A DNA stretch of 64,000 nt from an uncultured Bacteroidales bacterium (GTDB lineage: Bacteria; Bacteroidota; Bacteroidia; Bacteroidales; GWA2-32-17). Both the position numbers and the translations under genes were made by a program. Shown here piece by piece: positions 12,248 through 61,336 of this stretch. The notes below the pieces were generated by a model. That model ran no database searches and was not told the origin of the DNA. It worked only from the letters and a program-made list of their open reading frames with translations. Location: the NCBI GenBank assembly GCA_937960415.1, contig CALGPK010000031.1:36119-100118 (forward strand). Reading direction: 5' to 3'. Numbering within the stretch: the first letter of the stretch is position 1; every line of letters begins with the position of its first letter.

Positions 12248-12320
<73 letters not shown>

Positions 12321-19585: not shown

Positions 19586-22500
19586 ATGCCTATGAAAACA
19601 ATTGTTTCAAGCCTAATTGGCCTGTTTTTAATAATTATTTCGTTTGGACAAAATCAGGTAGTCATTTTAAACAACACAACTCACAACACTTCGGGTACAT
19701 ATTGCGGCTTTTGGTTTTACGACAATGGAGGTGCAAATGGAAATTATACCAACAACCAGGATTTTTGGATAACCCTAATGGGCAATCCTGCACCAAACAC
19801 TCATGTACGCATCAATTTTGCCAGTTTTGATATAAAACCCGATGACACGCTATACATTTACAACGGACCAGATATTACATCGCCGTTGTTAAGCAAACAT
19901 AATAATAACTACAACCCGCTGAATGGCTCCAATACCATGGTAATGGCCACATTAAGCAATCCTTCAGGAGCCCTAACTGTTCGATTAAAAACCAACGGAT
20001 CTAACACAGGAAGCGGATGGAATGCAACTATTATTTGTGGACAGGCTTGTCAGGCAATAGTTCCTCAAATTGATTTAACCAATACATCACCTCAACCTCA
20101 TTTTGAAAATGGATTCTGGTATATTGATATATGTGAAGGTGAAACTATAAATTTTGCTGCCTTAGCCGATAATACTGTTTTTCCGGAAAACGATATTCTG
20201 TATCACCAAGATGCTTCTAATTGTACTTTTAATTGGACATTTGGCGATCAAACCACAAGCACAGGACAAAATGTTTCTCATGCATACGCTCAACCGGGTG
20301 GATATAATGTTTATTTATCTATGACCGATCAAAATGGCTGTAATAGTTCACAACAAGCTTATGTAAGGGTAAGAATTGCTGGCAACCATATTGTTACGGT
20401 AAATCCTCCTTCGCCTATCTGTACAGGTGATACACTATTTATTGATGCTACCTATTCTCCATCATCGATTATAGTAACTACTGGAAACATTGGAATTACT
20501 CAAACTCAAATGTATAATACTGTTACCTATATTCCCGACGGTCCCAACTGTCCCCAACAATGTTATGGAACACCGGTTACCTTTACCAATTTTCCTCCCG
20601 GTGCTACCATTCAATCATCGGGCGATATAGAATCTATTTGCATCAACATGGAACACTCTTTTGCCGGCGATTTATCATTTCGCATCATCTGTCCAAACGG
20701 ACAAAGCGTAGTTCTTGATAGTTACGACAATTCTGGTGGATCGTATCTAGGACAAGCCAACGAAGAAGACTGTGGTTCATGTATTTCCAACCCACCTAAC
20801 TGCGGACAAGGAACACCCTGGACCTATTGTTGGTCTGAAATTTTTCCACAACAAGGCTTATTAAATAATCTTGATGCTGGAACGAGCCCTATTCCAGCAA
20901 CAGATATTGTTAATCATACCAATTATATCACTCCACAAAATCCCTTATCGGGACTTATTGGCTGCCCGCTCAATGGGACATGGAGTATAGAAATATGCGA
21001 CAATTGGGCTATTGATGACGGATGGGTTTTTTGGTGGTCGCTTACCCTCCAAAATCAAGCACAACTTAGTGGATGGTCTTATAGTGTTCCTGTTGATTAT
21101 GTCGATTTTCAAGGGTATAATTTTACCCAATTGACCGATACAACCGGATATATGATAGCCGATGCTATTGGTACTTTCCCCTATAACGTTATTGTTCATG
21201 ACATTTTTGGTTGTACTTATACAGCTAGTTTTAATGTACAGGTAGGCGGAGTCGTTCCTCCTATTCTTGGCAACGACACAACTATCTGTCAGGGCAATGC
21301 TGTTACCATCACTGCAAGTGGTGGGCAATCGTACACATGGAGCACGAATCAATCAGGAAATAGCATCATAGTTTCCCCTACTCAAACAACTACTTACACT
21401 GTAACTGCAACGGCAGGAAATGGTTGTACATTAACCGATCAAATTACAGTAAATGTAATTATTCCACCTCAAGCAAATGCTGGACAGGATGCAAATGTAT
21501 GTACACATACTTATACATTACAGGCAACTCCTACTGTTGGTACAGGTACATGGTCTTACAATGGTCCTGGAAATGCTACGTTCTCCAATATCAATAACCC
21601 CAACGCTACCGTTACCGTTAGTGCTGATGGTTTATACGAATTTATATGGACAGAAATAAATAATGATTGCTTTTCAAGTGATACAGTTTACATTCGTTTC
21701 ACAACACAACCCAATGCCAATGCTGGAAACGACATTACACTGTGTCAGCTTAACACTGTACTACAAGCAATCCCATCTGTTGGAATTGGCACATGGTTAC
21801 AAATATCAGGTCCTGGTACTATAAACTTTGCTAACATTCATGATCCTAATACAGAAATAACAACTACAACACAAGGTTCATATATTTTACAATGGACAGA
21901 AGATAATGGTTTTGGCTGTATCAGCCAGGATATATTAACCGTTACTTTATGGGAACAACCCGTTGCTAATGCAGGAACACTGGACTCTATTTGTTCCTTA
22001 ACATATCCAAACATGAATGCAATACCTTCTGTTGGTCAGGGAACATGGAGCCAATATTCAGGACCCGGAAATGCTCAATTTAACAATATCCATAGCCCTA
22101 CATCGTCGGTAACTGTGAGTACTTATGGTATATATCAATTTATATGGACCGAAAACAATAATGGTTGTATAAGCAAAGATACTGTTACCAAGATTTTCAA
22201 CTACATTCCTACTTCTACCTTTTCTGTTAATCCTATTAACTGTTTTCAAGATGTTACTACTGTTACATTTACCGGAATGGTCGATAGTGCCGTAGTTTAC
22301 AACTGGAATTTTGGAAATGCAACTATATTAAGTGGTAGTAATGGAGGTCCCTATCAAATAAGCTATTCAAATTCTGGAGTGTTTTCAATTACATTAACGG
22401 TTAGCCAACACGGTTGTACTTCTATTCCAACCACTATCAATATTTACAATCCTCCTTTATTAGAAGTTGAACTACATAAACAAGACATTTCATGCTTTGG

Positions 22501-23923
22501 TGCTATGGATGGTAAAATATTTACTACTGTAACAGGTGGAACTCCCCCCTACTTTTATCACTGGTCAAATGGCTCTCCCTCATCATTTATTGCTAATGCT
22601 AGTCAAGGTTATTATTATATCACGGTAACCGATTCAAAAGGTTGCAAAACTTATGATACTACTTACATATACGAACCCAATAAACTGTTTATCGATATTC
22701 CAGACACTATCTTTTTATGTAAAGATTCTTCTGTTAGCATTACAGCATCTGTTACAGGTGGAACTTACCCTTATTCGCTTTTATGGAACACCGGACAAGT
22801 TCAATCAACCATTTACGTATCGCCTCAGCAAAGTACATATTACTACCTGACTGTTACTGATGCCAATAACTGTAACGCTTTCGATCAAGTATTAGTATCT
22901 ATTTATCCTCCCTTAATTCTTAATTACTATACAACTAAAGATTCTATCTGTCCTGGTGAATTATTTTCAATTTTCCCATCGGTTTATGGTGGCAATGGCG
23001 GTCCTTATCAATACTACATAAATCAACAAGCAGTGAATGTACCCATTCATCTATATCCAAATTATTCTCAAGCATACCAACTCCTTGTTAAAGACGGATG
23101 CAACTATGAAGCAATAGCTAACATACCGGTTCATGTTTATCCATTGCCTCCTTTAAATCCGAGTTCTGATGTAATAGCAGGTTGTGAACCTTTAACTGTA
23201 ACATTTAACGACGGAAGTCCAGACGAAGGACAAACATATATTTGGGACTTTGGCGATGGAGAATCTGCTTACATAAAAAATCCTGTTCATATTTTCGAAA
23301 ATGAAGGAAATTACACCATTACCATTACCGTACAAAACGTTTATGGCTGTAAGGTTATCAATGTATATCCAAACTGGATAACAGTATATCCAGCTCCAAT
23401 TGCAAGATTTGAAAGAAATCCTATAAGAGCAAATATTTTAAAACCTGTATTCGAATTTACAAACCTTTCTATACTTGCCGATAGCGTTCTTTGGTATTTC
23501 GGCGATGGCGACTCTTCTAATATAAATAATCCCGTTCATATTTATCCCTCTCAGCCAGGAAGTTATTTGGTAACTCTTATAGCTTATACTCAAAAAGGTT
23601 GCGTCGATACAGCTTTTGTTTATGTATATGTCGATGATATTTATACCTTCTATGCTCCTACTGCTTTTAGCCCCGACGGAGATGGTATAAACGAATATTT
23701 CCGAGTATTCGGGCACGGTATAGATTCAAATGCATTTAGTTTAGTCATTTACGATCGTTGGGGCGAAATTATCTGGGAAAGCAACAACATTGAAACAAGA
23801 TGGGACGGAAAAGTTAAAAATGGTAAAATTGCACCTGTCGGTTCTTACACATGGTTAGCTAAATTCAGAGACATAAACGGTATATTACACGAACAAAGTG
23901 GAGTTGTAAACATTATAAGATAA
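19586..23923 (+). CDS. Giant secreted adhesin-like protein: CUB-like, PKD, proprotein-convertase P-domain, repeat modules, SprB repeats, PKD, T9SS type-B (gliding-motility) C-terminal domain
   Basis: 1445 aa with signal peptide. P-domain-like INMEHSFAGDLSFRIICPNGQSVVLDS...GTWSIEICDNWAIDDG. PKD units (WDFGDGESAYIKNPVHIF). SprB repeat ISCFGAMDGKIFTTVTGGTPPYFYHWSNG. C-terminal FYAPTAFSPDGDGINEYFRVFG...WDGK...GSYTW. Confidence 0.8.
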   Translation: MPMKTIVSSLIGLFLIIISFGQNQVVILNNTTHNTSGTYCGFWFYDNGGANGNYTNNQDFWITLMGNPAPNTHVRINFASFDIKPDDTLYIYNGPDITSPLLSKHNNNYNPLNGSNTMVMATLSNPSGALTVRLKTNGSNTGSGWNATIICGQACQAIVPQIDLTNTSPQPHFENGFWYIDICEGETINFAALADNTVFPENDILYHQDASNCTFNWTFGDQTTSTGQNVSHAYAQPGGYNVYLSMTDQNGCNSSQQAYVRVRIAGNHIVTVNPPSPICTGDTLFIDATYSPSSIIVTTGNIGITQTQMYNTVTYIPDGPNCPQQCYGTPVTFTNFPPGATIQSSGDIESICINMEHSFAGDLSFRIICPNGQSVVLDSYDNSGGSYLGQANEEDCGSCISNPPNCGQGTPWTYCWSEIFPQQGLLNNLDAGTSPIPATDIVNHTNYITPQNPLSGLIGCPLNGTWSIEICDNWAIDDGWVFWWSLTLQNQAQLSGWSYSVPVDYVDFQGYNFTQLTDTTGYMIADAIGTFPYNVIVHDIFGCTYTASFNVQVGGVVPPILGNDTTICQGNAVTITASGGQSYTWSTNQSGNSIIVSPTQTTTYTVTATAGNGCTLTDQITVNVIIPPQANAGQDANVCTHTYTLQATPTVGTGTWSYNGPGNATFSNINNPNATVTVSADGLYEFIWTEINNDCFSSDTVYIRFTTQPNANAGNDITLCQLNTVLQAIPSVGIGTWLQISGPGTINFANIHDPNTEITTTTQGSYILQWTEDNGFGCISQDILTVTLWEQPVANAGTLDSICSLTYPNMNAIPSVGQGTWSQYSGPGNAQFNNIHSPTSSVTVSTYGIYQFIWTENNNGCISKDTVTKIFNYIPTSTFSVNPINCFQDVTTVTFTGMVDSAVVYNWNFGNATILSGSNGGPYQISYSNSGVFSITLTVSQHGCTSIPTTINIYNPPLLEVELHKQDISCFGAMDGKIFTTVTGGTPPYFYHWSNGSPSSFIANASQGYYYITVTDSKGCKTYDTTYIYEPNKLFIDIPDTIFLCKDSSVSITASVTGGTYPYSLLWNTGQVQSTIYVSPQQSTYYYLTVTDANNCNAFDQVLVSIYPPLILNYYTTKDSICPGELFSIFPSVYGGNGGPYQYYINQQAVNVPIHLYPNYSQAYQLLVKDGCNYEAIANIPVHVYPLPPLNPSSDVIAGCEPLTVTFNDGSPDEGQTYIWDFGDGESAYIKNPVHIFENEGNYTITITVQNVYGCKVINVYPNWITVYPAPIARFERNPIRANILKPVFEFTNLSILADSVLWYFGDGDSSNINNPVHIYPSQPGSYLVTLIAYTQKGCVDTAFVYVYVDDIYTFYAPTAFSPDGDGINEYFRVFGHGIDSNAFSLVIYDRWGEIIWESNNIETRWDGKVKNGKIAPVGSYTWLAKFRDINGILHEQSGVVNIIR
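21467..22210 (+). repeat. Three tandem, diverged ~81-83-codon repeat modules inside the adhesin gene
   Basis: Each unit starts P-x-ANAG and contains P(T/S)VG-GTW...GPG...F-N(I)...P...W(T)E-N. Unit starts are at 21467, 21710 and 21959. Confidence 0.75.
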
Positions 23924-27739: not shown

Positions 27740-27821
27740 TGCGGGTGAAGGGACTCGAACCCCCACGCCTTGCGGCACCAGATCCTAAGTCTGGCGCGTC
27801 TGCCAGTTCCGCCACACCCGC
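27740..27821 (-). tRNA. tRNA-Leu (anticodon UAG), class II with long variable arm
   Basis: The reverse complement GCGGGTGTGGCGGAACTGGCAGACGCGCCAGACTTAGGATCTGGTGCCGCAAGGCGTGGGGGTTCGAGTCCCTTCACCCGCA folds as a cloverleaf. Anticodon loop CTTAGGA. Confidence 0.9.
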
Positions 27822-37282: not shown

Positions 37283-37369
37283 GGAGAGATGGCAGAGTGG
37301 TCGAATGCGGCGGTCTTGAAAACCGTTGTACCCGCGAGGGTACCGGGGGTTCGAATCCCTCTCTCTCCG
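37283..37369 (+). tRNA. tRNA-Ser (anticodon UGA), class II
   Basis: Acceptor GGAGAGA/TCTCTCC, anticodon loop CTTGAAA, long variable arm, T-loop TTCGAAT. A T-run follows. Confidence 0.9.
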
Positions 37370-49400: not shown

Positions 49401-50468
49401 ATGACTGTAAAGTTTATTTTCATAACTGGTTATTTGATGGCAATCAATATTTTACTAATTGCACAAAAATACAGCAACGAGTTTTTGCAAATTGGTGTAG
49501 GCGGACGTGCTTTATCGATGGGAAATGCTGTGGTTGCAAGTTCCGATGACATTTATTCTACTTACTGGAATCCCTCGGGATTACTCGGCTTGCAACACAA
49601 TGTTTCGCTAGGTCTCATGCATTCTTCGTATTTCGGTGGATTGGCTGCATACGATTTTGGTGCTGCTGTCATTAAAAACTCCGACTCATCGGCATTTGCT
49701 ATTAGCGTGTTGCGGTTTGGCGTCGATGACATACCCAACACACTTGATCTGGTAGATGCCAATGGCAATTTCGACTTTTCTAAACTTCGGTCTTTTTCGG
49801 TTGCCGATTATGCTATTTTGTTTAGTTATGCCCGTAAATTCAACAAATATCCAAATATTGACTGGGGAGCCAACTTAAAAATCATCCGCCGAATTGTTGG
49901 CGAGTTTGCATCGGCCTGGGGGTTCGGGTTCGACTTATCGGTACGTTATACCTATCAAGCGTTTATTTTGGGAGCTACACTCCGCGATGCTACATCAACG
50001 TTTAATGCATGGACTTACAACACCGAAACCTTCGAAGAAGCATTTATTAAAACCGGAAACGAAATACCTCAAAATGGCTTAGAAATAAACCGCCCCAGAT
50101 TGATTACCGGTATAGCATACGATTATCCCATTAAAGAAAAGTTTTCGATTTTAGGAGAAGTCAATGCTGATTTTACATTCGATGGAAAACGTAACACCTT
50201 AATTAAAAGTTCATTTGCTAGCATAGACCCACATGTCGGAGTAGAATTATCGTACTTAAAAAAATTTTTTATCAGAACCGGTATCTTCAATATCCAACAT
50301 GTCGTCAATGCTTCTGGTAAAAATGTGTTAAATATACAGCCTTCGATAGGTGCAGGAATAAGGCATAAATCATTTGCCATTGACTATGCCTTTACCGATA
50401 TTGGCAACGCATCGGCAGCCCTTTATTCGCATGTTATCAGCATACGTTTTGGTCTAGAACGGAAGTAG
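49401..50468 (+). CDS. PorV/PorQ-family (FadL-like) outer-membrane beta-barrel protein
   Basis: N-terminal IGVGGRALSMGNAVVASSDDIYSTYWNPSGL motif typical of PorV/PorQ-like barrels. TAACTTTG box at 49377-49384. Confidence 0.5.
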   Translation: MTVKFIFITGYLMAINILLIAQKYSNEFLQIGVGGRALSMGNAVVASSDDIYSTYWNPSGLLGLQHNVSLGLMHSSYFGGLAAYDFGAAVIKNSDSSAFAISVLRFGVDDIPNTLDLVDANGNFDFSKLRSFSVADYAILFSYARKFNKYPNIDWGANLKIIRRIVGEFASAWGFGFDLSVRYTYQAFILGATLRDATSTFNAWTYNTETFEEAFIKTGNEIPQNGLEINRPRLITGIAYDYPIKEKFSILGEVNADFTFDGKRNTLIKSSFASIDPHVGVELSYLKKFFIRTGIFNIQHVVNASGKNVLNIQPSIGAGIRHKSFAIDYAFTDIGNASAALYSHVISIRFGLERK

Positions 50469-51665
50469 ATGAATAACGTTAGCAATGTTGCATTTGTTTT
50501 TGTTGTTTGCGGAAGTAAGGAACATATCACAACATTAAATTTTTCATTACAAGCGTTAAAAAAATTTACCCAACACGAAATTATTGTAGTTACAGATTCA
50601 CAAAGAAACGAATCTGAAATACAGCACCATCAGATAATTGATGTACACACACCTGCACACTATACTCACCATCAGGCAAGTATTTGGCTCAAAACCTCGC
50701 TTCATCGAATATTACCTGCCAACAAACTTTATGCTTATCTCGATAGCGACGTTATAGCTCTTAACAATAATTGCAACCGAATTTTCGAATTTTACAGGCC
50801 TCCCATTACGTTTGCAAAAGATCATACAAGCATTCAATACTTCAGTCCTTATGCTCTTAATTGTAAGTGTTATGATAATTTTCTCGACGATAAAAACCAT
50901 TTGGAAACAGCTTTAAGAAGAGCATTGAAACATTCAAACTACCCCGGACAATATTCTAATAGACATTACAGAGAATTACTTAAATATCTTCACGAACTAA
51001 CTTATAATAAATTATCACTTTTAAAACTTGTTATTTCAATCCCATTATCCTTTCTATTCCCATTTCATCTTAAAAAAAATATTGTTTTAGACAGCAAACA
51101 CAAACGATGGATTATAAACAAGCAGTTTGATTATCCAGTATTACTTTTATATAGAAAAAAAATAAAAAAAGAAGGTTATGTATTCTCATTTAAACAACAA
51201 AACTGGTTTAGCATTGCTGGTAATCACTTTGTAAAAAAGAACCGATGCAACCACCTAATTCAAGCCATACAAGAAACTTTTTTTATTGGTGTGGCCAATA
51301 ATTTTCAGCACTGGAATGGCGGTGTCTTTCTTTTCGACCATAACTCTCATGCTTTTCTTGAGCAATGGCACCAAAACACTCTTACAATTTTTTCCAATCC
51401 ATACTGGAAGATACGCGATCAAGCCACGTTAATTGTAACTGCCCATCAGTTTGGTTTACAAAATCATATTACTCTTCCCGAAGAATTTAACTTTATTGCC
51501 GACTTTTACAAACCATACATATATCCACATTCTCAAAAAGTTAATAGTTTTTTTAAGAGTAATAAAATTATTAGCCCCTCCTTTATACATATCTATCACC
51601 ATTTTGGCGATAAAGAATGGGATGTATGGCAACGAATCGAGCAAATTCTCGGAATCACTACTTAA
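50469..51665 (+). CDS. Hypothetical protein, possible GT-A fold (GT8-like) glycosyltransferase
   Basis: VAFVFVVCGSKEH, YLDSDVIAL (DxD-like), WNGGVFLF (resembles the NSGV motif of GT8). Starts immediately after the upstream stop. Confidence 0.4.
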   Translation: MNNVSNVAFVFVVCGSKEHITTLNFSLQALKKFTQHEIIVVTDSQRNESEIQHHQIIDVHTPAHYTHHQASIWLKTSLHRILPANKLYAYLDSDVIALNNNCNRIFEFYRPPITFAKDHTSIQYFSPYALNCKCYDNFLDDKNHLETALRRALKHSNYPGQYSNRHYRELLKYLHELTYNKLSLLKLVISIPLSFLFPFHLKKNIVLDSKHKRWIINKQFDYPVLLLYRKKIKKEGYVFSFKQQNWFSIAGNHFVKKNRCNHLIQAIQETFFIGVANNFQHWNGGVFLFDHNSHAFLEQWHQNTLTIFSNPYWKIRDQATLIVTAHQFGLQNHITLPEEFNFIADFYKPYIYPHSQKVNSFFKSNKIISPSFIHIYHHFGDKEWDVWQRIEQILGITT

Positions 51666-54600
51666 ATGCTATTTCAGGTAGCCCATCACCGGATAATTTT
51701 AGGCGATCAAAGTAAGATGGTACAGCTTTGCCAGAAATTTTATCGACATACAATTTGGCCAGATACTGACTAAGCATAAATCCGTGTCCACGTAATCCTA
51801 CGAATAAACCCAGTTCGGGATCTATAATATAACGTGGTTCGACATAATAACCCGACCAAACAGCCTGAAATCCAACCGAAGACAATTGAGGTATCCAGTT
51901 GACAAATATTTCAGCAACAATCTCAATAAAGTCTTTCGAATTTATTTTAAGATTCTTATCGGTTTCGATAAAATCGTTTGCTGGCGAGGCACAGCCAATA
52001 ATTTGTCCTGTTTCGGCAAGTTGCTGACCATACACAGCCGAAAAGCCTTTGTATTTTCTACGATCAATTAGCATATCAAGTGGTTTGCCATTATATCCAA
52101 GCATAGGCAATCGTCGAGTAATAAAAGCCTGATGTTTTACAGGATATAAACCTGTTTCGATACCTAATTTACGAGCAAATTCGTCTGCTCTGGGACCCAA
52201 GGCATTAACAAACAGTTCAGCTTCGATTTGATAATAATCTCCATCATGATGCTTGACCAGAGCTATATAATATCCGTTTTTTTCGACATCGAGTAATTGA
52301 CTATCTTCCCAAATAGTACCACCATGATCTGTACCAATGGCTCTCAACAGGTCGATAACAATACCCGGCGTTGCTTGCCAGCAATTGTTTGTTATAAGTG
52401 CAGCATGATAAGTATCGAGATTAGGATTAAAGTTGGGTGAAATATACTTAACAAAGTCGCCACGTTCGATTAAAAATGCATCGCTCCACTCGGTCGATTT
52501 TTTAAGTGCTTGATATGTTGCATCGTCGTGGGCAAAAGTAACATAACGTGTTTGTCTGAAATGAATATCTTTTATATTTTGTAATTCTTTAAAAATTTCA
52601 AGGTTATGCGATGCAATATCCGAAATCTCTGGCACTGTAAAAGCCGGACGACCTCCTGCTATATTTCGCCACGATGCTCCCCTATCGTAATTTAATAATA
52701 AAGGTTTGTAGCCTGCTTCAGCAAAATAACGATACAAAGCACTACCTGCAATACCACCTCCAGCAATAAGTACTGTGGTTTTAATTTTTTTTGGTTCTTT
52801 TTGTACTATAATTTTCTCTTTTTGACTTCGTGGATATAACTCACCCATTGTAAGTTGGTTCGATAAAGGACCACGGGGAGTTGCGTCACCAATTACCTGA
52901 ATATTGTATTTGAAGATAGATTGTTTCAATCGCTTAATACAACGCTTACCCCGACATGCACCCATTCCTAAACGCGTAATATGCTTAATCTCATCAACGG
53001 AAATATATTTGCGATTTCCAATTTCTTCTAATATTTCATCCATCGTAACATCGTCGCAGTGGCAAACGTACATCTTTTCGTTTATGCTCCCATCGTAATT
53101 TTTTATGCGTAATGGCTCTGGATAATCTTCCTTAACGATAAAACCTCTAACTGCTGTTAAAGCTTCGCCTTCGACGGTTAAAGATCGTACACGGGCTATA
53201 TTGGTTTTATTAGGTTTATACAAAATTTTTTCGATTATACCCTCACCGAGAATCTCTCCCTGATTATTGACCAAATAAACCTCTTTACCTTCTTCGGCAA
53301 AATACTCAATAGGTAAAAAGAGCCATTGTTTGTTTAAGTTATATCCAAAGATGGCTAATCCTGGACATTGATATACACAATCCATGCAGCCCACACATTT
53401 GTCGAAATCGATATGAGGCACGGTACTGGTCGAAGATTTCGAAATAGCTTTGTGTGGACATACAAAAGCACAGGGATTACATGCAAAGCCATATAAACAA
53501 TCAATTAACACAAAAGGTTTATTCATACGATTTTGATCAGGGAAAAAAGGAGCCTCCATGACTTTAACAGGATGCTGCTGCGAGTCGATATATTCTTTTG
53601 AGATTTCGAGATAATGCTGATAATTGTATCGTACCGACAAAGCTTCGAGGACTTCGTAAGCAGCTTGTTTACCTCGTAAAACGGCACTGGTACCTTCGCC
53701 AATTCTGATGGCATCGCCAACGCCATAGCATAATCGCCCAAATATTTCGTTGCCTTTAATGAGCAGCTGATCATCGGGAACTAAACCAGTACAAATGTTA
53801 ATAGCATCGATACCTTCAATAATTTTTTCTGTCCCTGGTATAGGTTCAAAGTTTTGGCATTGAGCTATGACTGCACCTACAATGCCAGTATATTTGCTAT
53901 TAGGAATAGCTTTAAGCAATATATGCGATGTAAGAATAGGAATACCCAAACGTCGCACACGATTTGCCTGCACGGGAAAACCTCCCTCACGAGGCTGAGC
54001 TTCGATAATCGCTACCACCTTTGCTCCGGCTTGCATAAGCTGATAAGAGGTTAAGTATCCAATATTTCCCGCACCTACCGTTAAAACACGTTTACCCAAT
54101 AGCGTAAACTCGTTGTTCATCATTTTTTGTACAACAGCTGCTGTATAAACTCCCGGCACATCGTCATTTTCAAAAGCTGGCATAAAAGGCACAGCTCCCG
54201 TAGCTACAATGAGTGCATCGGCTTCGACATAATAAATCTCCTCGGTTTGTATGTTTTTTACGGCTAATCGTTTCCCTTCAAGAATATCCCATACTGTTGA
54301 ATGTAGGAATATACCACTGCGATCGTTTCCTGCCAGTGTTTCGGCAATCTCAAAACCACGCATTCCACCAAATTTCTTTTCCTTTTCGAAAAAGAAAAAC
54401 TGGTGTGTTTGCATAATAAATTGACCTCCTATACGAGCATTATTGTCGATAACGATATTACTCACGCCATGTTGATTCAAAATTTCGCGAGCAGCTAATC
54501 CGGCAGGACCTGCTCCTATAATGGCAACCTGTGTTTTGTAAACATTGGTTGGCTTATCGGTTTTTAATGGAATAACCGATGGTTGATAATTGCGAGGAAT

Positions 54601-54876
54601 TTCGGAAACTTCTTTTACATCATCAACTTTGGTAATACAAATTCGACGAATGACACCATCTACAAGCATTTCGCATGCCCCACATTTTCCAATACCACAT
54701 TCAAGGCTGCGGTTTCGATTATCGAGACTATGCGAATGAACAGGGTACCCGGCCTGATGAAGAGCTGCAGCTATAGTATAACCTTTTTCGGTTTCAATAA
54801 CCTTACCATTGTATGTAAAGCTTGTTTTATCATTTTTTGGAACTTCTAAAATAGGGTGCTTCTGAATTTTTAACAT
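51658..54876 (-). CDS. Multidomain flavo-iron-sulfur oxidoreductase (2Fe-2S, FAD/NAD(P) reductase, 2x4Fe-4S ferredoxin, BFD-like 2Fe-2S, DAO-type FAD dehydrogenase)
   Basis: CGIGKCGACEMLVDG; IIGAGPAGLAA and VGAGNIGYL; CNPCAFVCP and CVGCMDCVYQCP; CHCDDV...GACRGKRC; VLIAGGGIAGSALY. All in one 1072-aa ORF. Confidence 0.8.
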   Translation of the reverse strand: MLKIQKHPILEVPKNDKTSFTYNGKVIETEKGYTIAAALHQAGYPVHSHSLDNRNRSLECGIGKCGACEMLVDGVIRRICITKVDDVKEVSEIPRNYQPSVIPLKTDKPTNVYKTQVAIIGAGPAGLAAREILNQHGVSNIVIDNNARIGGQFIMQTHQFFFFEKEKKFGGMRGFEIAETLAGNDRSGIFLHSTVWDILEGKRLAVKNIQTEEIYYVEADALIVATGAVPFMPAFENDDVPGVYTAAVVQKMMNNEFTLLGKRVLTVGAGNIGYLTSYQLMQAGAKVVAIIEAQPREGGFPVQANRVRRLGIPILTSHILLKAIPNSKYTGIVGAVIAQCQNFEPIPGTEKIIEGIDAINICTGLVPDDQLLIKGNEIFGRLCYGVGDAIRIGEGTSAVLRGKQAAYEVLEALSVRYNYQHYLEISKEYIDSQQHPVKVMEAPFFPDQNRMNKPFVLIDCLYGFACNPCAFVCPHKAISKSSTSTVPHIDFDKCVGCMDCVYQCPGLAIFGYNLNKQWLFLPIEYFAEEGKEVYLVNNQGEILGEGIIEKILYKPNKTNIARVRSLTVEGEALTAVRGFIVKEDYPEPLRIKNYDGSINEKMYVCHCDDVTMDEILEEIGNRKYISVDEIKHITRLGMGACRGKRCIKRLKQSIFKYNIQVIGDATPRGPLSNQLTMGELYPRSQKEKIIVQKEPKKIKTTVLIAGGGIAGSALYRYFAEAGYKPLLLNYDRGASWRNIAGGRPAFTVPEISDIASHNLEIFKELQNIKDIHFRQTRYVTFAHDDATYQALKKSTEWSDAFLIERGDFVKYISPNFNPNLDTYHAALITNNCWQATPGIVIDLLRAIGTDHGGTIWEDSQLLDVEKNGYYIALVKHHDGDYYQIEAELFVNALGPRADEFARKLGIETGLYPVKHQAFITRRLPMLGYNGKPLDMLIDRRKYKGFSAVYGQQLAETGQIIGCASPANDFIETDKNLKINSKDFIEIVAEIFVNWIPQLSSVGFQAVWSGYYVEPRYIIDPELGLFVGLRGHGFMLSQYLAKLYVDKISGKAVPSYFDRLKLSGDGLPEIAFK

Positions 54877-55034
54877 AACCGAAAATTTAATTATTGCAAA
54901 TTTTTCTACTTACACGTAAAAATACTATGATGTTTATCAGGTAACTAAAAAAGTTTAATGTTGATATATTATTCTTTGAATTGATGAAGTGAAAAATTAA
55001 ACGATTTGTATATTTGTTTCTAAAAAAAAATTTT

Positions 55035-55541
55035 ATGAAAGCATTTTTGTTGACCATTTTTTTTGCCATTAGACTATGTATATTTAGTCAGCAAATATTG
55101 GTAGAACCGGGTGCTTATTTTGCCATAAGCTTACAACCGAGCTCACAAGATATAATAACTTTTGCTATTGTTGAAATGAACGAAAAAGGCGAAATATATA
55201 ACCGTATTTTTTTAAATAGAACCAACTGGCTACGACAAATAGTAGGAATTCAGGAATCAATTGCCAACCCCGAGGGCAAGAATCTTATGAAGGAAGCAGG
55301 TATTGAAAGCCCCGACGTGGTAAAAGACTTGTGGAAGCTTCGATATGCCGAATTCCCTTACAGCACGAGCAACGAAAAAGGGTGGGCATCGAATCCTCGA
55401 AATCCTGGTAATGAGCAGATGAAGATGCTTAATCAATTCGGCATATACACGCTAAACGATTTCGTTGTAGGAGAAAAAGTCATACAACTACTGAAAGCCA
55501 TGGAAGATCCTCGCTGGGTTTCGGAATATCAGAGTCGTTAA
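55035..55541 (+). CDS. Hypothetical secreted protein (168 aa)
   Basis: ATG 55035 gives signal peptide MKAFLLTIFFAIRLCIFSQQ. TATATTTG box at 55009-55016. No family recognised. Confidence 0.45.
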   Translation: MKAFLLTIFFAIRLCIFSQQILVEPGAYFAISLQPSSQDIITFAIVEMNEKGEIYNRIFLNRTNWLRQIVGIQESIANPEGKNLMKEAGIESPDVVKDLWKLRYAEFPYSTSNEKGWASNPRNPGNEQMKMLNQFGIYTLNDFVVGEKVIQLLKAMEDPRWVSEYQSR

Positions 55542-58024: not shown

Positions 58025-61000
58025 ATGAAATCTGTTGCAGTAATAGTTTTATTTTTATTCGTTTGTTCAACCACCAGCATATACTCTCAAAATAAAAAAG
58101 AAATAAATAAAGCGTTGAACTACTTAAACAAAAAAGGTGAAGTTTATTTTAATTTTCAAATCAATCAAGTATTAGATTTACAAAGACTAAGCCAAATTAT
58201 TTCAATTGATAATGTTAAAGAAAAAACCGTGTGGGCCTATGCCAATAAAAAAGAATTTGAATTATTTCTCGAACAATCGATACCGTTTCAGGTATTACCA
58301 CATCCTGGCGATGCTCCTGCAAAAATGTATGATGGAAAAGGAATTTGGGATTTTGACACGTACCCTACTTATTCTCAGTATGAAACCATGATGCAAACCT
58401 TTGCTAGCACATATCCCAATATTTGCAAACTCGACACTATAGCTATTTTGGCAAGCGGGCGCAAGCTACTGGCTATAAAAATTTCCGATAACGTTCAACA
58501 AGACGAAGCTGAACCTGAATTTTTATTTTCTGGTACCATGCATGGCGATGAAACCACCGGATATGTATTATTGCTTCGTTTGATAAACTACCTTGCCACC
58601 AATTATGGAACAGACACAAGAGTAACCAATATTGTAAACAACACGGAGCTTTTTATTTGCCCTCTTGCTAATCCCGATGGAACATACGCTGGGGGCAATA
58701 ATACAGTAAGTGGTGCCACTCGCTACAATGCCAATAATATAGACCTTAATCGTAATTATCCCGATCCACGTGCTGGACAACATCCCGACGGTAACGCATG
58801 GCAACCCGAAACCATTGCCTTTATGAACTATGCCAATGCTCACCACTTTGTAATGGGAGCCAACACACACGGTGGTGCCGAAGTAGTTAATTATCCTTGG
58901 GACACATGGACATCAAGTCAAAACACCCATGCCGACAACAACTGGTGGATATACGTTTCGCGCGAATTTGCCGATACTGCACAATATTATGGCCCCGCGG
59001 GATATTTTAACGATATAAATAATGGAATTACCGCTGGTGGAGACTGGTATGTTATTACCGGTGGACGACAGGACTATATGAATTATTTTAAACAATGTAG
59101 AGAAGTAACTCTCGAACTCTCAACAACCAAGTTACTGTCGGCCAGTCAGTTACCTGCTTATTGGAATTATTTGTATCGCTCATTCTTACATTATATTGAG
59201 CATGTAATGTATGGAATTCATGGCACCATTACAGACGCATGCACCAATCAACCAATAAAAGCCAAAATATGGATCGAAAACCACGACCAAACAAACGACA
59301 GTTCGCATGTATACAGTGCATTACCACATGGCAACTATCATCGTCCAATCTACGCCGGAACATATAGCATGACCGTGTCGGCTCCGGGGTATCAAAGTCA
59401 AACCATTAGCAACATAACAGTAAACAATCATCAAAAAGTAATACAAAATGTATCCTTAACTCCCTTGCCGCCAGTAGCCGATTTTATTGCAGTTAGTACT
59501 ACTAGCTGTACAGGTACTATTGAGTTCTTAAATCAATCGCTATATCCAAACGGTTCTTCATTTTTATGGGATTTTGGCGATGGACATACCTCCACCGATG
59601 TAAACCCTATACACACTTATGCACAAAGCGGGACTTACACCGTATCGCTGACGGTTATAAACTCTTGCACCGGAAACAGTACCAAAACTCGTACAGCGTA
59701 CATTACCATTAACCTACCTCCCAATCCTACTGCTAACGATGTACATACCTGTACAACAGGCAGTGTTACTCTTAATGCCAATGCCACGGGAAGCATTTAT
59801 TGGTACGACTCTCCTCAAAGTACTACACCAATATCCACCGGCAATACTTATCAAGCCAGTATAAGCCAAACCACTACCTATTACATCGAAAACCATGTTG
59901 AATCGTCCAGTATCTATGGTGGCGATTTACGCAGCAATAGTAGTGGTGGCTTTTTATCATCTACTACCAAGCATTATTTGATTTTTAACTGCAGCCAACC
60001 CTGTAAAATAATTTCGGTAGAAGTTAATGCACAAACTGCCGGTAACAGAACCATTGAATTGCAAAACTCCACTGGACAGGTTCTGCAAACTACTACTATC
60101 AATATACCTGCTGGTATTAGCCGCATCACGTTAAACTTTAACGTACCTGCTGGCAATGGATACCGTTTGGTTGGACCAATAAATGCTGCTTTATATCGCA
60201 ACAATTCAGGATCAACGTATCCATATAATATCGGTAATTTAATTAGTATTGTAGGCAATTCTGCCGGTGATTTGAACTATTACTATTATTTCTACAATTG
60301 GGAAATAAAAGGACCTGACTGTGTCAGTTCAAGAATTCCGGTTACGGTGCATGTTTATTCGTCACCTCAAGCAAATGCCGGAACCGATGATACCATTGCT
60401 TATGGAACTTCAACAACTTTAAACGGACAAGTTACCGGAGGATCGGGAAACTATTCATACGAATGGCAACCTGCAAGTATGGTAATGAATCCCACAAGCT
60501 TAATAACACAGACTGTAAATTTAACTTCAAATCAAACTTTTGTACTTAGTGTAACTGATAACTTAACTGGTTGTAGCCACTCCGATAGCGTAGTTATTTA
60601 TATCAACAATTCATCATTTAGTGTAGATATTCATGCAAGTCAAAACAATATATGTTCGGGAACACCGGTACAACTTACAACTACTGTTAACGGTGGTTCG
60701 GGAAATTATACCTATACATGGAGTTCAACTCCTATGGGTTTCAGTAGCAACGATTCTAATCCTATGGTACATCCATTTGAAACCACTACGTATTTTGTTA
60801 CGGTTAACGATGGGAATAATCAAACAGTAAGTTCTATTACCATTTATGTTTTACCTTTACCTATAGCAAATTATACTTACCAAATCAATGAATTAACCGT
60901 ATCATTTGTTAACACATCCTCTAATGCAGAGAGTTATCAGTGGTTTTTCGGTGATGGGAATACCTCAACCGACGAAAATCCCACATACACATATATCACA

Positions 61001-61336
61001 AATGGTGATTTTGAAGTTATACTTGTTGCATACAATTCATGCGGGACAGACACTCTTACAACAAATATACATTTAGACAACAGTATTATTGAAGAAAATA
61101 ATAATAATTATATTTTTGTATATCCCAATCCGTTCGATTTGTCTCTTCAAATACAACTTACTGATAATTTACCCATAAATATTAGAATCTTATCCATTGA
61201 TGGTAGAATTGTTTTAAATGAATGGTTAAATAACAATATAAGTATTATCAATACAAGTCTATTGGCAAAAGGAACTTATATTATCGAATTTAATAACCAA
61301 ATTTATTCAGAAAGACGTGTTATGATTAAGCACTAA
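58025..61336 (+). CDS. M14B-type zinc carboxypeptidase with transthyretin-like, PKD and Ig-like repeats and T9SS type-A C-terminal domain
   Basis: 1103 aa. HGDETTGY zinc motif, DLNRNYPD, CarboxypepD_reg-like IHGTITDACTNQPIKAKIWIE. PKD units (WDFGDGHTSTDVNPIHTY, WFFGDGNTSTDENPTYTY). C-terminal VYPNPFD...GTYIIEF. Confidence 0.85.
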   Translation: MKSVAVIVLFLFVCSTTSIYSQNKKEINKALNYLNKKGEVYFNFQINQVLDLQRLSQIISIDNVKEKTVWAYANKKEFELFLEQSIPFQVLPHPGDAPAKMYDGKGIWDFDTYPTYSQYETMMQTFASTYPNICKLDTIAILASGRKLLAIKISDNVQQDEAEPEFLFSGTMHGDETTGYVLLLRLINYLATNYGTDTRVTNIVNNTELFICPLANPDGTYAGGNNTVSGATRYNANNIDLNRNYPDPRAGQHPDGNAWQPETIAFMNYANAHHFVMGANTHGGAEVVNYPWDTWTSSQNTHADNNWWIYVSREFADTAQYYGPAGYFNDINNGITAGGDWYVITGGRQDYMNYFKQCREVTLELSTTKLLSASQLPAYWNYLYRSFLHYIEHVMYGIHGTITDACTNQPIKAKIWIENHDQTNDSSHVYSALPHGNYHRPIYAGTYSMTVSAPGYQSQTISNITVNNHQKVIQNVSLTPLPPVADFIAVSTTSCTGTIEFLNQSLYPNGSSFLWDFGDGHTSTDVNPIHTYAQSGTYTVSLTVINSCTGNSTKTRTAYITINLPPNPTANDVHTCTTGSVTLNANATGSIYWYDSPQSTTPISTGNTYQASISQTTTYYIENHVESSSIYGGDLRSNSSGGFLSSTTKHYLIFNCSQPCKIISVEVNAQTAGNRTIELQNSTGQVLQTTTINIPAGISRITLNFNVPAGNGYRLVGPINAALYRNNSGSTYPYNIGNLISIVGNSAGDLNYYYYFYNWEIKGPDCVSSRIPVTVHVYSSPQANAGTDDTIAYGTSTTLNGQVTGGSGNYSYEWQPASMVMNPTSLITQTVNLTSNQTFVLSVTDNLTGCSHSDSVVIYINNSSFSVDIHASQNNICSGTPVQLTTTVNGGSGNYTYTWSSTPMGFSSNDSNPMVHPFETTTYFVTVNDGNNQTVSSITIYVLPLPIANYTYQINELTVSFVNTSSNAESYQWFFGDGNTSTDENPTYTYITNGDFEVILVAYNSCGTDTLTTNIHLDNSIIEENNNNYIFVYPNPFDLSLQIQLTDNLPINIRILSIDGRIVLNEWLNNNISIINTSLLAKGTYIIEFNNQIYSERRVMIKH

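Follow-up and report, generated by a model that had tools for sequence, protein, structure and literature searches.

What reaction is served by a single gene that joins two flavoprotein folds and three iron-sulfur (Fe-S) modules in one polypeptide? The question is raised by a gene on the minus strand (51658..54876) of a 64,000-nucleotide stretch of DNA from an uncultured Bacteroidales bacterium (contig CALGPK010000031.1, positions 36,119 to 100,118), which is hereafter called the window. We compared its product with homologs, profile families, solved structures and gene neighborhoods. To judge from its collinear alignment with the products of an archaeal four-gene cluster, the window protein is a single-chain alpha-gamma-delta-beta fusion. 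It is probably a soluble, cytoplasmic amine dehydrogenase of the archaeal proline dehydrogenase type, in which an internal Fe-S wire leads to nicotinamide adenine dinucleotide (NAD(H)) and/or ferredoxin. That proline is the substrate in the Bacteroidales clade is a tentative suggestion.

Collinearity with an archaeal four-gene cluster

The closest comparator was found in a Thermococci metagenome-assembled genome (MAG), in which four overlapping genes (locus L092) encode a Fer2_4 plus Pyr_redox_2 protein (alpha, 475 aa), a Fer4 dicluster protein (gamma, 156 aa), a BFD/SO_alpha_A3 protein (delta, 87 aa) and a DAO protein (beta, 380 aa). In blastp comparisons, the four products aligned one after the other along the window protein, with alpha covering aa 2-444 (37% identity, E 1e-68), gamma aa 445-564 (34%, E 1e-26), delta aa 604-671 (39%, E 8e-14) and beta aa 699-1061 (24%, E 2e-16), and it is because of this collinearity that we describe the window protein as a fusion of the four. 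The unusual first ferredoxin motif, C-x5-C-x2-C-x3-CP, is common to gamma of L092 and the window protein. As aligned here, the module with two putative [4Fe-4S] clusters is the gamma component of the archaeal plan and not an extra on a plan like that of HcnABC. A first-pass annotation of the sequence had called the protein collinear with HcnA-HcnB-HcnC; the module order is indeed the same, but the closest comparator is the archaeal alpha-gamma-delta-beta cluster.

The subunits of the archaeal complex studied by Kawakami and colleagues in 2004 and 2005 reportedly have masses of about 54, 19, 8 and 43 kDa, and alpha is said to have NADH dehydrogenase activity. Since the sizes of the L092 genes fit these subunits, and since L092 beta is 44% identical to PH1364, the beta subunit of a solved L-proline dehydrogenase, we infer from the sequences that L092 is orthologous to the purified archaeal enzymes. 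A dye-linked L-proline dehydrogenase of heterotetrameric type exists in the Thermococcus/Pyrococcus group (PMC8704557), and the studies on the L-proline dehydrogenase/NADH dehydrogenase complex of Thermococcales (Kawakami et al., 2004, 2005) are cited by PMC8704557 and PMC4364671.

Forms with three, two and one genes were identified in other organisms. In Natranaerofaba carboxydovora (L094), the genes encode a Fer2_4 protein of 115 aa, a Pyr_redox_2-Fer4-BFD protein of 619 aa and a DAO protein of 420 aa. In Ca. Saccharicenans (Aminicenantes) and many others, a Fer2_4-Pyr_redox_2-Fer4-BFD protein of about 700 aa is followed by a DAO protein of about 385 aa, and the DAO gene was always the downstream, overlapping gene in the two-gene loci. 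The Bacteroidales clade has the one-gene form, as do P0146 (a bacterial metagenome protein), P0155 and the metamonads Carpediemonas membranifera (P0137, KAG9389563.1), Chilomastix cuspidata (P0168) and Kipferlia bialata (P0198, GIQ83247.1), one of whose proteins is named "sulfurtransferase". The metamonad fusions are nearer to the bacterial split forms (approximately 40-46% identity) than to the Bacteroidales fusion, and they likely originated by lateral transfer and independent fusion.

Among representatives at 50% identity, the Bacteroidales proteins fell into essentially one cluster, amid distant relatives of other gene structure. In all-against-all comparisons, the Bacteroidales clade was 25-32% identical to every other member, whereas the split forms, the protist fusions and P0155 were 36-57% identical among themselves, and the fused P0155 was 53% identical to the split P0139. 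These identities indicate that fusion or fission has occurred several times, with the Bacteroidales form as the branch that has diverged most. Enzymes of bacteria, archaea and metamonads are joined in one fission/fusion series of four, three, two and one genes. A free-standing DAO protein of 465 aa (P0131, at 157-1554 of L095, with enolase as the next gene) is 47% identical to the DAO module of the window protein; it has a 94-aa N-terminal extension with no Pfam match, and the contig ends 156 nt upstream. This protein may represent a beta of the Bacteroidales type that was split off.

Modules, ligands and predicted structure

According to the ORF list and the translation, the open reading frame (ORF) is uninterrupted, as described in the first-pass annotation, and has an ATG start codon. 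The coordinates given there were right, and the strand, which had been left out, is the minus strand. Its quoted motifs (CGIGKCGACEMLVDG, IIGAGPAGLAA, VGAGNIGYL, CNPCAFVCP, CVGCMDCVYQCP, CHCDDV...GACRGKRC and VLIAGGGIAGSALY) are all present in the translation, and its five modules were each recovered, in the order that it gave, by Pfam profile searches (Table 1). Neither a signal peptide nor a transmembrane segment was found when the sequence of the protein was inspected for both.

Table 1. Coordinates of the fused gene and of the modules encoded by it.
Feature	Residues (aa)	Position in the window (nt)	Strand	Basis
Whole gene, predicted fused alpha-gamma-delta-beta flavo-iron-sulfur dehydrogenase	1072 aa	51658..54876 (including stop codon)	-	ORF list, translation, full-length homologs of 1072-1103 aa
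Fer2_4 [2Fe-2S] module	17-90	54607..54828	-	Pfam PF13510, E 7.5e-10
Two-dinucleotide-binding flavoprotein (alpha core)	116-372	53761..54531	-	Pfam Pyr_redox_2, E 6e-24
Ferredoxin-type 2x[4Fe-4S] module (start of gamma equivalent)	456-510	53347..53511	-	Pfam Fer4/Fer4_7
Small beta-rich domain after the ferredoxin module (rest of gamma equivalent)	511-600	53077..53346	-	Predicted strands, predicted local distance difference test (pLDDT) ~80-90
BFD-like [2Fe-2S] module (delta equivalent)	603-652	52921..53070	-	Pfam PF04324 (Fer2_BFD), E 2.8e-8
DAO-type (GR2) FAD domain (catalytic beta equivalent)	702-1045	51742..52773	-	Pfam DAO, E 2.1e-31

The putative ligands of the Fer2_4 module, C60-x4-C65-x2-C68-x11-C80, lie within CGIGKCGACEMLVDG and equal the gamma motif C-x4-C-x2-C-x11~12-C (PMC4575208). 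The module is the counterpart of HcnA/OdhC, the gamma subunit of the bacterial enzymes, and of the N-terminus of archaeal alpha, and its identity to the 115-aa Fer2_4 protein that stands alone in Natranaerofaba is 38%. In the alpha core, the first Rossmann fold (IIGAGPAGLAA, aa 119-129) is, by its GAGPAG motif, a predicted binding site for flavin adenine dinucleotide (FAD), and the second (VGAGNIGYL, aa 267-275), with GAGNIG...E292, is a likely NAD(H) site. All relatives, archaeal alpha among them, share with the window protein the NAD-type GxGNxG...Glu, with the Glu at the end of beta-2.

Two ferredoxin motifs follow, C460-x5-C466-x2-C469-x3-C473-P and C494-x2-C497-x2-C500-x3-C504-P. The dicluster region (aa 465-509) scored 22.9 bits with Fer4, as compared to a cutoff of 21.1, and Fer4_7 (aa 465-505, E 1.6e-5) was just below its cutoff. 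The alignment with archaeal gamma reaches into the beta-rich domain, to aa 564, and aa 511-600 gave no Pfam family when scanned alone. The putative BFD ligands are C605-x-C607-x33-C641-x4-C646, with a spacer that is typical of Pfam BFD but longer than the 15-20 residues quoted for the BFD-like C-x-C...C-x4-C motif (PMC4575208), and the module matched the C-terminal BFD-like region of PH1363 in the profile search. The DAO module has GGGIAG at its N-terminus and GHGFM near its C-terminus, and both GxGxxG and GHGFM are conserved among homologs. In the AlphaFold2 model of the full-length protein (mean pLDDT 73, predicted template modeling score (pTM) 0.54), the DAO domain has values mostly of 80-95.

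Similarity to solved structures and profile families

Protein Data Bank (PDB) sequences recovered in the single-sequence search were 1y56_A (PH1363, E 3e-13), SoxA (2gag_A, E 4e-10) and 1y56_B (PH1364, E 6e-8). With a family profile, 1y56_B was recovered at E 9e-59, as compared to 4e-27 for glycine oxidase, 8e-26 for dimethylglycine dehydrogenase and 7e-23 for SoxB, while the alpha-like part matched 1y56_A at E 4e-35 and 2gag_A at E 5e-29. With 1y56_A, the profile alignment extends over the N-terminus (Fer2_4-like) and the first Rossmann fold, and the BFD region is matched separately. SoxA and PH1363 were also the top matches for the profile of the split-type alpha-like proteins. In a fold search with the AlphaFold2 model, the best PDB match was again 1y56_B (E 4e-23, template modeling score (TM-score) 0.79), followed at lower rank by glycine oxidase, dimethylglycine dehydrogenase, SoxB, D-arginine dehydrogenase, NikD and the flavin-containing opine dehydrogenase 7fgp_B. 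These profile, solved-structure and fold searches, with their matches to 1y56_A/B and SoxA, support the earlier proposal of a self-contained amine or amino-acid dehydrogenase with a predicted internal Fe-S wire.

In NCBIfam, no family reached its cutoff; the best match of the N-terminal part was soxA (TIGR01372), with 80 bits as compared to a cutoff of 1164. An HdrA-like identity of the alpha-like module was considered and rejected, as SoxA, PH1363 and thioredoxin reductases scored far above HdrA. The family to which the solved relatives belong, with L-proline, D-hydroxyproline and opine dehydrogenases, hydrogen cyanide (HCN) synthase and sarcosine oxidase, has been reviewed by Watanabe et al. 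(PMC4575208).

Conservation and spread

Homologs were searched for in a collection of 5.8 billion proteins, and prevalence was assessed in a collection with one genome per species (GTDB). The best 120 matches from the former had lengths of 1072-1103 aa, covered 100% of the query and were 71-90% identical to it, the closest, at 90%, being from a Bacteroidales MAG. Full-length relatives were found at no fewer than 574 loci in the species-representative genomes, nearly all of them from Bacteroidales. The best 80 of these at least 574 loci were from Bacteroidales MAGs (Lentimicrobiaceae, Prolixibacteraceae, Salinivirgaceae, Tenuifilaceae, Rikenellaceae and others), with complete chromosomes in several cases, and the cluster at 65% identity takes in a protein from the cultured gut bacterium Parabacteroides distasonis (WP_347511366.1). 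Identity is approximately 70% across families of the Bacteroidales. The view of the fusion as a rarity thus needs correction: the frequency survey shows it to be common, and it has arisen more than once.

In an alignment of 76 full-length homologs, each from a different GTDB species, all 16 putative cluster cysteines were 100% conserved, and the linkers between the modules were conserved at 42-58%. The eight Fer4 and the four BFD cysteines are invariant even in relatives at 25-30% identity. Homology, module order and conserved ligands are established by these comparisons. The database names given to the proteins are generic ("FAD-dependent oxidoreductase", "ferredoxin", "sulfurtransferase"), and no characterized full-length, fused or Fe-S-inserted bacterial member was found in these names or in the full-text literature; a characterized function for the same architecture, which the first-pass annotation had listed among the findings that would overturn it, was thus not encountered in either source.

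Genomic context of the fused gene and its relatives

No constant operon partner was found in 79 Bacteroidales loci, in which the surroundings are mostly housekeeping synteny (starch-synthase-like, GlmS, YceD, PlsX and FabH genes). A PutA-type proline dehydrogenase gene (PRODH; Pfam Pro_dh, E 1.6e-37) directly adjoins the fused gene in 13 of these loci, and a gene similar to 1-pyrroline-5-carboxylate (P5C) dehydrogenase is located at most 8 kb away in three. Since the PRODH cases collapse to two clades, these adjacencies are suggestive only, as a hint of a link to proline. A gene similar to Fe/Mn superoxide dismutase (cluster 7), recognized by eye, is located next to or near the fused gene, just downstream, in L035, L070, L076 and other loci.

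The statement in the first-pass annotation that context gives no hint holds within the window, but the relatives are informative. The clearest tie of the family to proline catabolism is a locus (L087, 1-5313, ENA k141_1504376) with the gene order P5C dehydrogenase, alpha-like protein and DAO protein. The P5C dehydrogenase (TIGR01236, E 2.5e-88 over the available C-terminal 205 aa) overlaps the start of the alpha-like gene, whose product has a complete GltD/NfnB-like module (Fer4_20 plus Pyr_redox_2) in place of the ferredoxin module. A GltD/NfnB-like module is present at the position of the ferredoxin module in P0171 and P0292. In a soda-lake sediment metagenome (L086, 5603-12526), an apparent operon consists of a NuoE-NuoF fusion gene (793 aa), a gene for a 1310-aa protein in which Fer2, a polyferredoxin and FlpD/MvhD are joined to the Fer2_4-Pyr_redox_2-Fer4-BFD module, and a DAO gene, a layout that looks like an electron-bifurcating complex around a DAO-type dehydrogenase. 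Furthermore, Fer4 plus FlpD are encoded in L090 by a gene of their own that overlaps the alpha-like gene, and P0143 has a flavodoxin at its N-terminus. Taken together, the relatives link the DAO core repeatedly to NAD(P)H-input and low-potential electron-transfer modules and, in one lineage or more, to the catabolism of proline.

Proposed mechanism and alternative explanations

In the mechanism that we propose, the FAD of the C-terminal DAO domain would oxidize an imino or amino acid (most likely L-proline or a related compound) at its C-N bond, to give the cyclic imine. The two electrons would leave singly through the BFD [2Fe-2S] cluster and then the two [4Fe-4S] clusters, and would reach the alpha FAD, which would exchange hydride with NAD(H) at the second Rossmann site. 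The Fer2_4 [2Fe-2S] cluster would serve as a further one-electron entry or exit port, probably to ferredoxin or flavodoxin, and the fusion of four parts would fix the stoichiometry and the electron wire within one chain.

Several observations weigh against the assignment of the window protein to the proline dehydrogenase type. The oxidation of proline has a midpoint potential (E0') of about -120 mV, some 200 mV above that of NAD+/NADH, and cannot alone reduce NAD+. Because the proline/P5C couple is so much more positive, the plain proline:NAD+ reaction would be uphill, which leaves three options: ferredoxin is co-oxidized (confurcation), the acceptor is another one, or the enzyme works in the reductive direction. 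The catalytic module is also diverged. It is just 22-24% identical to PH1364 and archaeal beta, and thus more distant from its archaeal counterpart (24%) than are the electron-transfer modules (34-39%). Scanned alone, it had no NCBIfam match at 1e-5, as compared to a ThiO match of 5e-41, plus matches to DadA and SoxB, for split-type beta. The Arg of the Arg-X-Trp motif is replaced, so that only the Trp is kept (A-V-W in the window protein, A-T-W in P0121), while the motif reads R-T-W in PH1364 and either R-Q-W or R-T-W in the archaeal and split betas; in the alignment, the usual TPD loop is replaced as well. This Arg-X-Trp has been proposed as the site of flavin mononucleotide (FMN) at the alpha/beta interface (PMC4575208). 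Because of the divergence and the loss of the Arg and the TPD loop, the substrate and the presence of FMN may differ from the archaeal type. Invariants of the family that are retained include GxGxxG, G741/R743, H915 in K-H-Q-A, W-x-G-Y-Y as in PH1364, and GHGFM.

Further points on the same side come from context, structure prediction and the literature. The neighborhood of the fused gene in the window is uninformative on function, and no PRODH or P5C dehydrogenase gene was found anywhere in the window. Adjacency to PRODH or P5C dehydrogenase genes in the Bacteroidales occurs in two or three clades only, in no case with the genes in the same direction, and an adjoining PutA-type PRODH speaks against a second proline dehydrogenase as much as for it. 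The full-length model is of moderate confidence only, and no biochemistry on any fused or Fe-S-inserted bacterial member was found in the literature.

One alternative is flavin-based bifurcation or confurcation, with electron pairs split or merged at the FAD of the N-terminal flavoprotein, by analogy with Ldh-Etf, Nfn and Hdr. The oxidation of an amine (proline), together with reduced ferredoxin, would drive the reduction of NAD+; in the other direction, both the imine and ferredoxin would be reduced by NADH. On thermodynamic grounds, NAD+ reduction by proline would need coupling. The predicted cofactors (two FAD, two [2Fe-2S] and two [4Fe-4S] clusters), with two possible one-electron branches, are Nfn-like; candidate partners are seen in relatives, with NuoE-NuoF and MvhD/FlpD-polyferredoxin in L086, Fer4 plus FlpD in L090 and GltD/NfnB-like modules in P0171 and P0292; and all hosts are anaerobes or fermenters, metamonad protists among them. 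Weak multi-domain fold matches to NfnABC/StnABC were obtained as well, but at TM-scores of only about 0.2. Nor was a NuoEF, MvhD, Etf or Nfn partner found nearby in the window or in the 79 Bacteroidales loci, the nearest relatives of the alpha-like module are SoxA/PH1363 and thioredoxin reductases, not HdrA or NfnB, and the literature searched describes no bifurcating member of the family. We consider this explanation unlikely for the window protein, and give a similarly low chance to the broader idea that a hitherto unrecognized class of flavin-based confurcating or bifurcating amine dehydrogenases may comprise the Bacteroidales enzyme together with the split and protist forms. The opposite direction of the reaction would make the protein an NAD(P)H-dependent imine reductase, for instance one that converts P5C or 1-pyrroline-2-carboxylate to proline, as an electron sink or for proline or osmolyte synthesis. 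The potential of the imine/amine couple lies far above that of NAD(P)H, the conserved NAD-type site feeds a wire that ends at the DAO flavin, and fermenting hosts need electron sinks. However, the DAO/GR2 enzymes characterized so far, including PH1364 and the opine and D-hydroxyproline dehydrogenases (PMC4575208), are oxidases or dehydrogenases, a relative is encoded in an operon with a catabolic P5C dehydrogenase, and an Fe-S wire is needless for a reaction that is done by simple ProC-type reductases, all of which makes a reductive role improbable.

Another known DAO system could also be represented by the fusion, namely HCN synthase, an opine or D-hydroxyproline dehydrogenase, sarcosine oxidase, or anaerobic glycerol-3-phosphate dehydrogenase of the GlpA type. 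PH1364 outranks SoxB, ThiO and opine dehydrogenase in profile and fold searches, although 7fgp_B is among the fold matches, and the NCBIfam scores are far under their cutoffs, although soxA is the best of these families for the N-terminal part. The gene order hcnA-hcnB-hcnC is the same, and the Cys motifs of the gamma and alpha subunits of opine and D-hydroxyproline dehydrogenases are present, but the Hcn, Odh, Lhp and Sox enzymes as described in PMC4575208 are without the ferredoxin module, which has its own gene in the archaeal cluster. GlpA models do match the BFD region; in GlpA, however, DAO precedes BFD, while BFD precedes DAO in the window protein. No support was found in profile, fold or context comparisons for HCN synthase or opine oxidase specifically, and an identity as sarcosine oxidase was ruled out, as the GcvT-like folate domain is missing and the score is far below the cutoff. 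Orthology to any of these systems is thus, in our estimate, quite improbable. An artificial fusion of two or more genes, by misassembly or a frameshift, is conceivable in that relatives split into two, three or four genes have stop and start codons that overlap, such that one indel could fuse them. Yet the same frame of 1072-1103 aa recurs in thousands of independent assemblies, including those of complete chromosomes and of cultured P. distasonis, and because full-length homologs, cysteines and even the linkers are conserved across species, the chance of an artefact is negligible.

For a soluble amine dehydrogenase of the archaeal proline dehydrogenase type, which we prefer, the parts are known; what is new is a widespread one-gene version whose catalytic domain has diverged. 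The family is large and is present in Bacteroidales of the gut and the environment as well as in anaerobic protists. The assignment supplies testable substrates and partners for a large orphan family, and the one-chain form is a handy target for single-gene expression. If coupling to NAD(H) and ferredoxin is true, it would explain the anaerobic oxidation of proline-type substrates and could add an electron-bifurcating family. With confurcation, fermentative anaerobes would be able to use amino acids that are too high in potential for NAD+, with the whole machinery in one polypeptide.

Other features of the window

The window has a G+C content of 35%, and a DUF4199 protein, a weak PorV-like match and a sorting domain of the type IX secretion system in it are markers of the Bacteroidota. 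The neighbors of the fused gene are oriented as had been described, one convergent (50469..51665, plus strand, 398 aa), which overlaps its 3' end by 8 nt, and one divergent (55014..55541, plus strand), which is separated from it by 137 nt; neither gives a confident Pfam match. The convergent gene directly follows another ORF (49401..50468, plus strand, 355 aa), which has a weak PorV-like match (E 1.6e-4) below the cutoff. The wider neighborhood includes a family 2 glycosyltransferase, a DUF4199 protein, a CDP-alcohol phosphatidyltransferase, two unknown ORFs, a PALP enzyme, an LTXXQ protein, an outer membrane protein and an M14 peptidase. The gene at 58025..61336 (plus strand) encodes a secreted M14 zinc carboxypeptidase of 1103 aa that has CarboxypepD_reg, two PKD domains, one Ig_7 domain and a C-terminal sorting domain of the type IX secretion system, and a very long ORF of 1445 aa is located at 19586..23923 (plus strand). 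No riboswitch or RNA leader was found near the fused gene. The only Rfam matches in the window are three tRNA genes (12248-12320, plus; 27740-27821, minus; 37283-37369, plus), none of them nearby.

Comparison with known systems

The archaeal Thermococcales complex (L092) has the four components in the same order as the window protein, alpha-gamma-delta-beta. In these hyperthermophiles they are four separate subunits, whereas the window protein is a single polypeptide in a mesophilic bacterium.

Among solved structures, the alpha4beta4 enzyme PH1363/PH1364 (PDB 1Y56) is the best match to both halves of the window protein, and PH1364 shares the W-[AS]-G-Y-Y motif with the window protein. In contrast to the window protein, PH1363/PH1364 consists of two separate subunits, PH1363 has no ferredoxin insert, and the profile alignment ends before its second Rossmann fold. 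In PH1363, the site equivalent to the NAD-type site binds adenosine triphosphate. Read from the profile alignment, the N-terminal domain of PH1363 is without the cluster cysteines. The N-terminal 120 residues or so of this protein correspond to the gamma subunit (PMC4575208).

The bacterial alpha4beta4gamma4 opine and D-hydroxyproline dehydrogenases and HcnABC have a [2Fe-2S] gamma subunit or HcnA, a BFD-type alpha subunit or HcnB and a DAO-type beta subunit or HcnC, as in the window protein. The gamma motif C-x4-C-x2-C-x11-C is identical, and the hcnABC gene order is the order of the modules, while the odh gene order, beta-gamma-alpha, is not. These enzymes differ from the window protein in that they have no 2x[4Fe-4S] module, are made of separate subunits, contain FMN and come from aerobic proteobacterial hosts. 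HcnABC, which in pseudomonads is associated with the membrane and regulated by oxygen, with HcnC as the subunit that oxidizes glycine, was compared by module order only; the window protein has no transmembrane segment and belongs to an anaerobic Bacteroidales host.

In the heterotetrameric sarcosine oxidase SoxABGD (2GAG, 1VRQ), the N-terminal half of SoxA ranks first or second among the sequence relatives of the alpha-like part, and SoxB is clearly related in fold to the DAO module. The GcvT-like tetrahydrofolate domain of SoxA is absent from the window protein according to the Pfam scan, and Fer4, BFD and DAO are found there instead. SoxA has no GxGxxG at the second site in the alignment and no Fe-S clusters, and sarcosine oxidase is an oxidase of aerobes. 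Finally, the split and protist relatives have the same modules and the same invariant cysteines as the window protein, with DAO last; their DAO module is canonical, with RxW and TPD and strong ThiO, SoxB and DadA scores, whereas that of the window protein is diverged.

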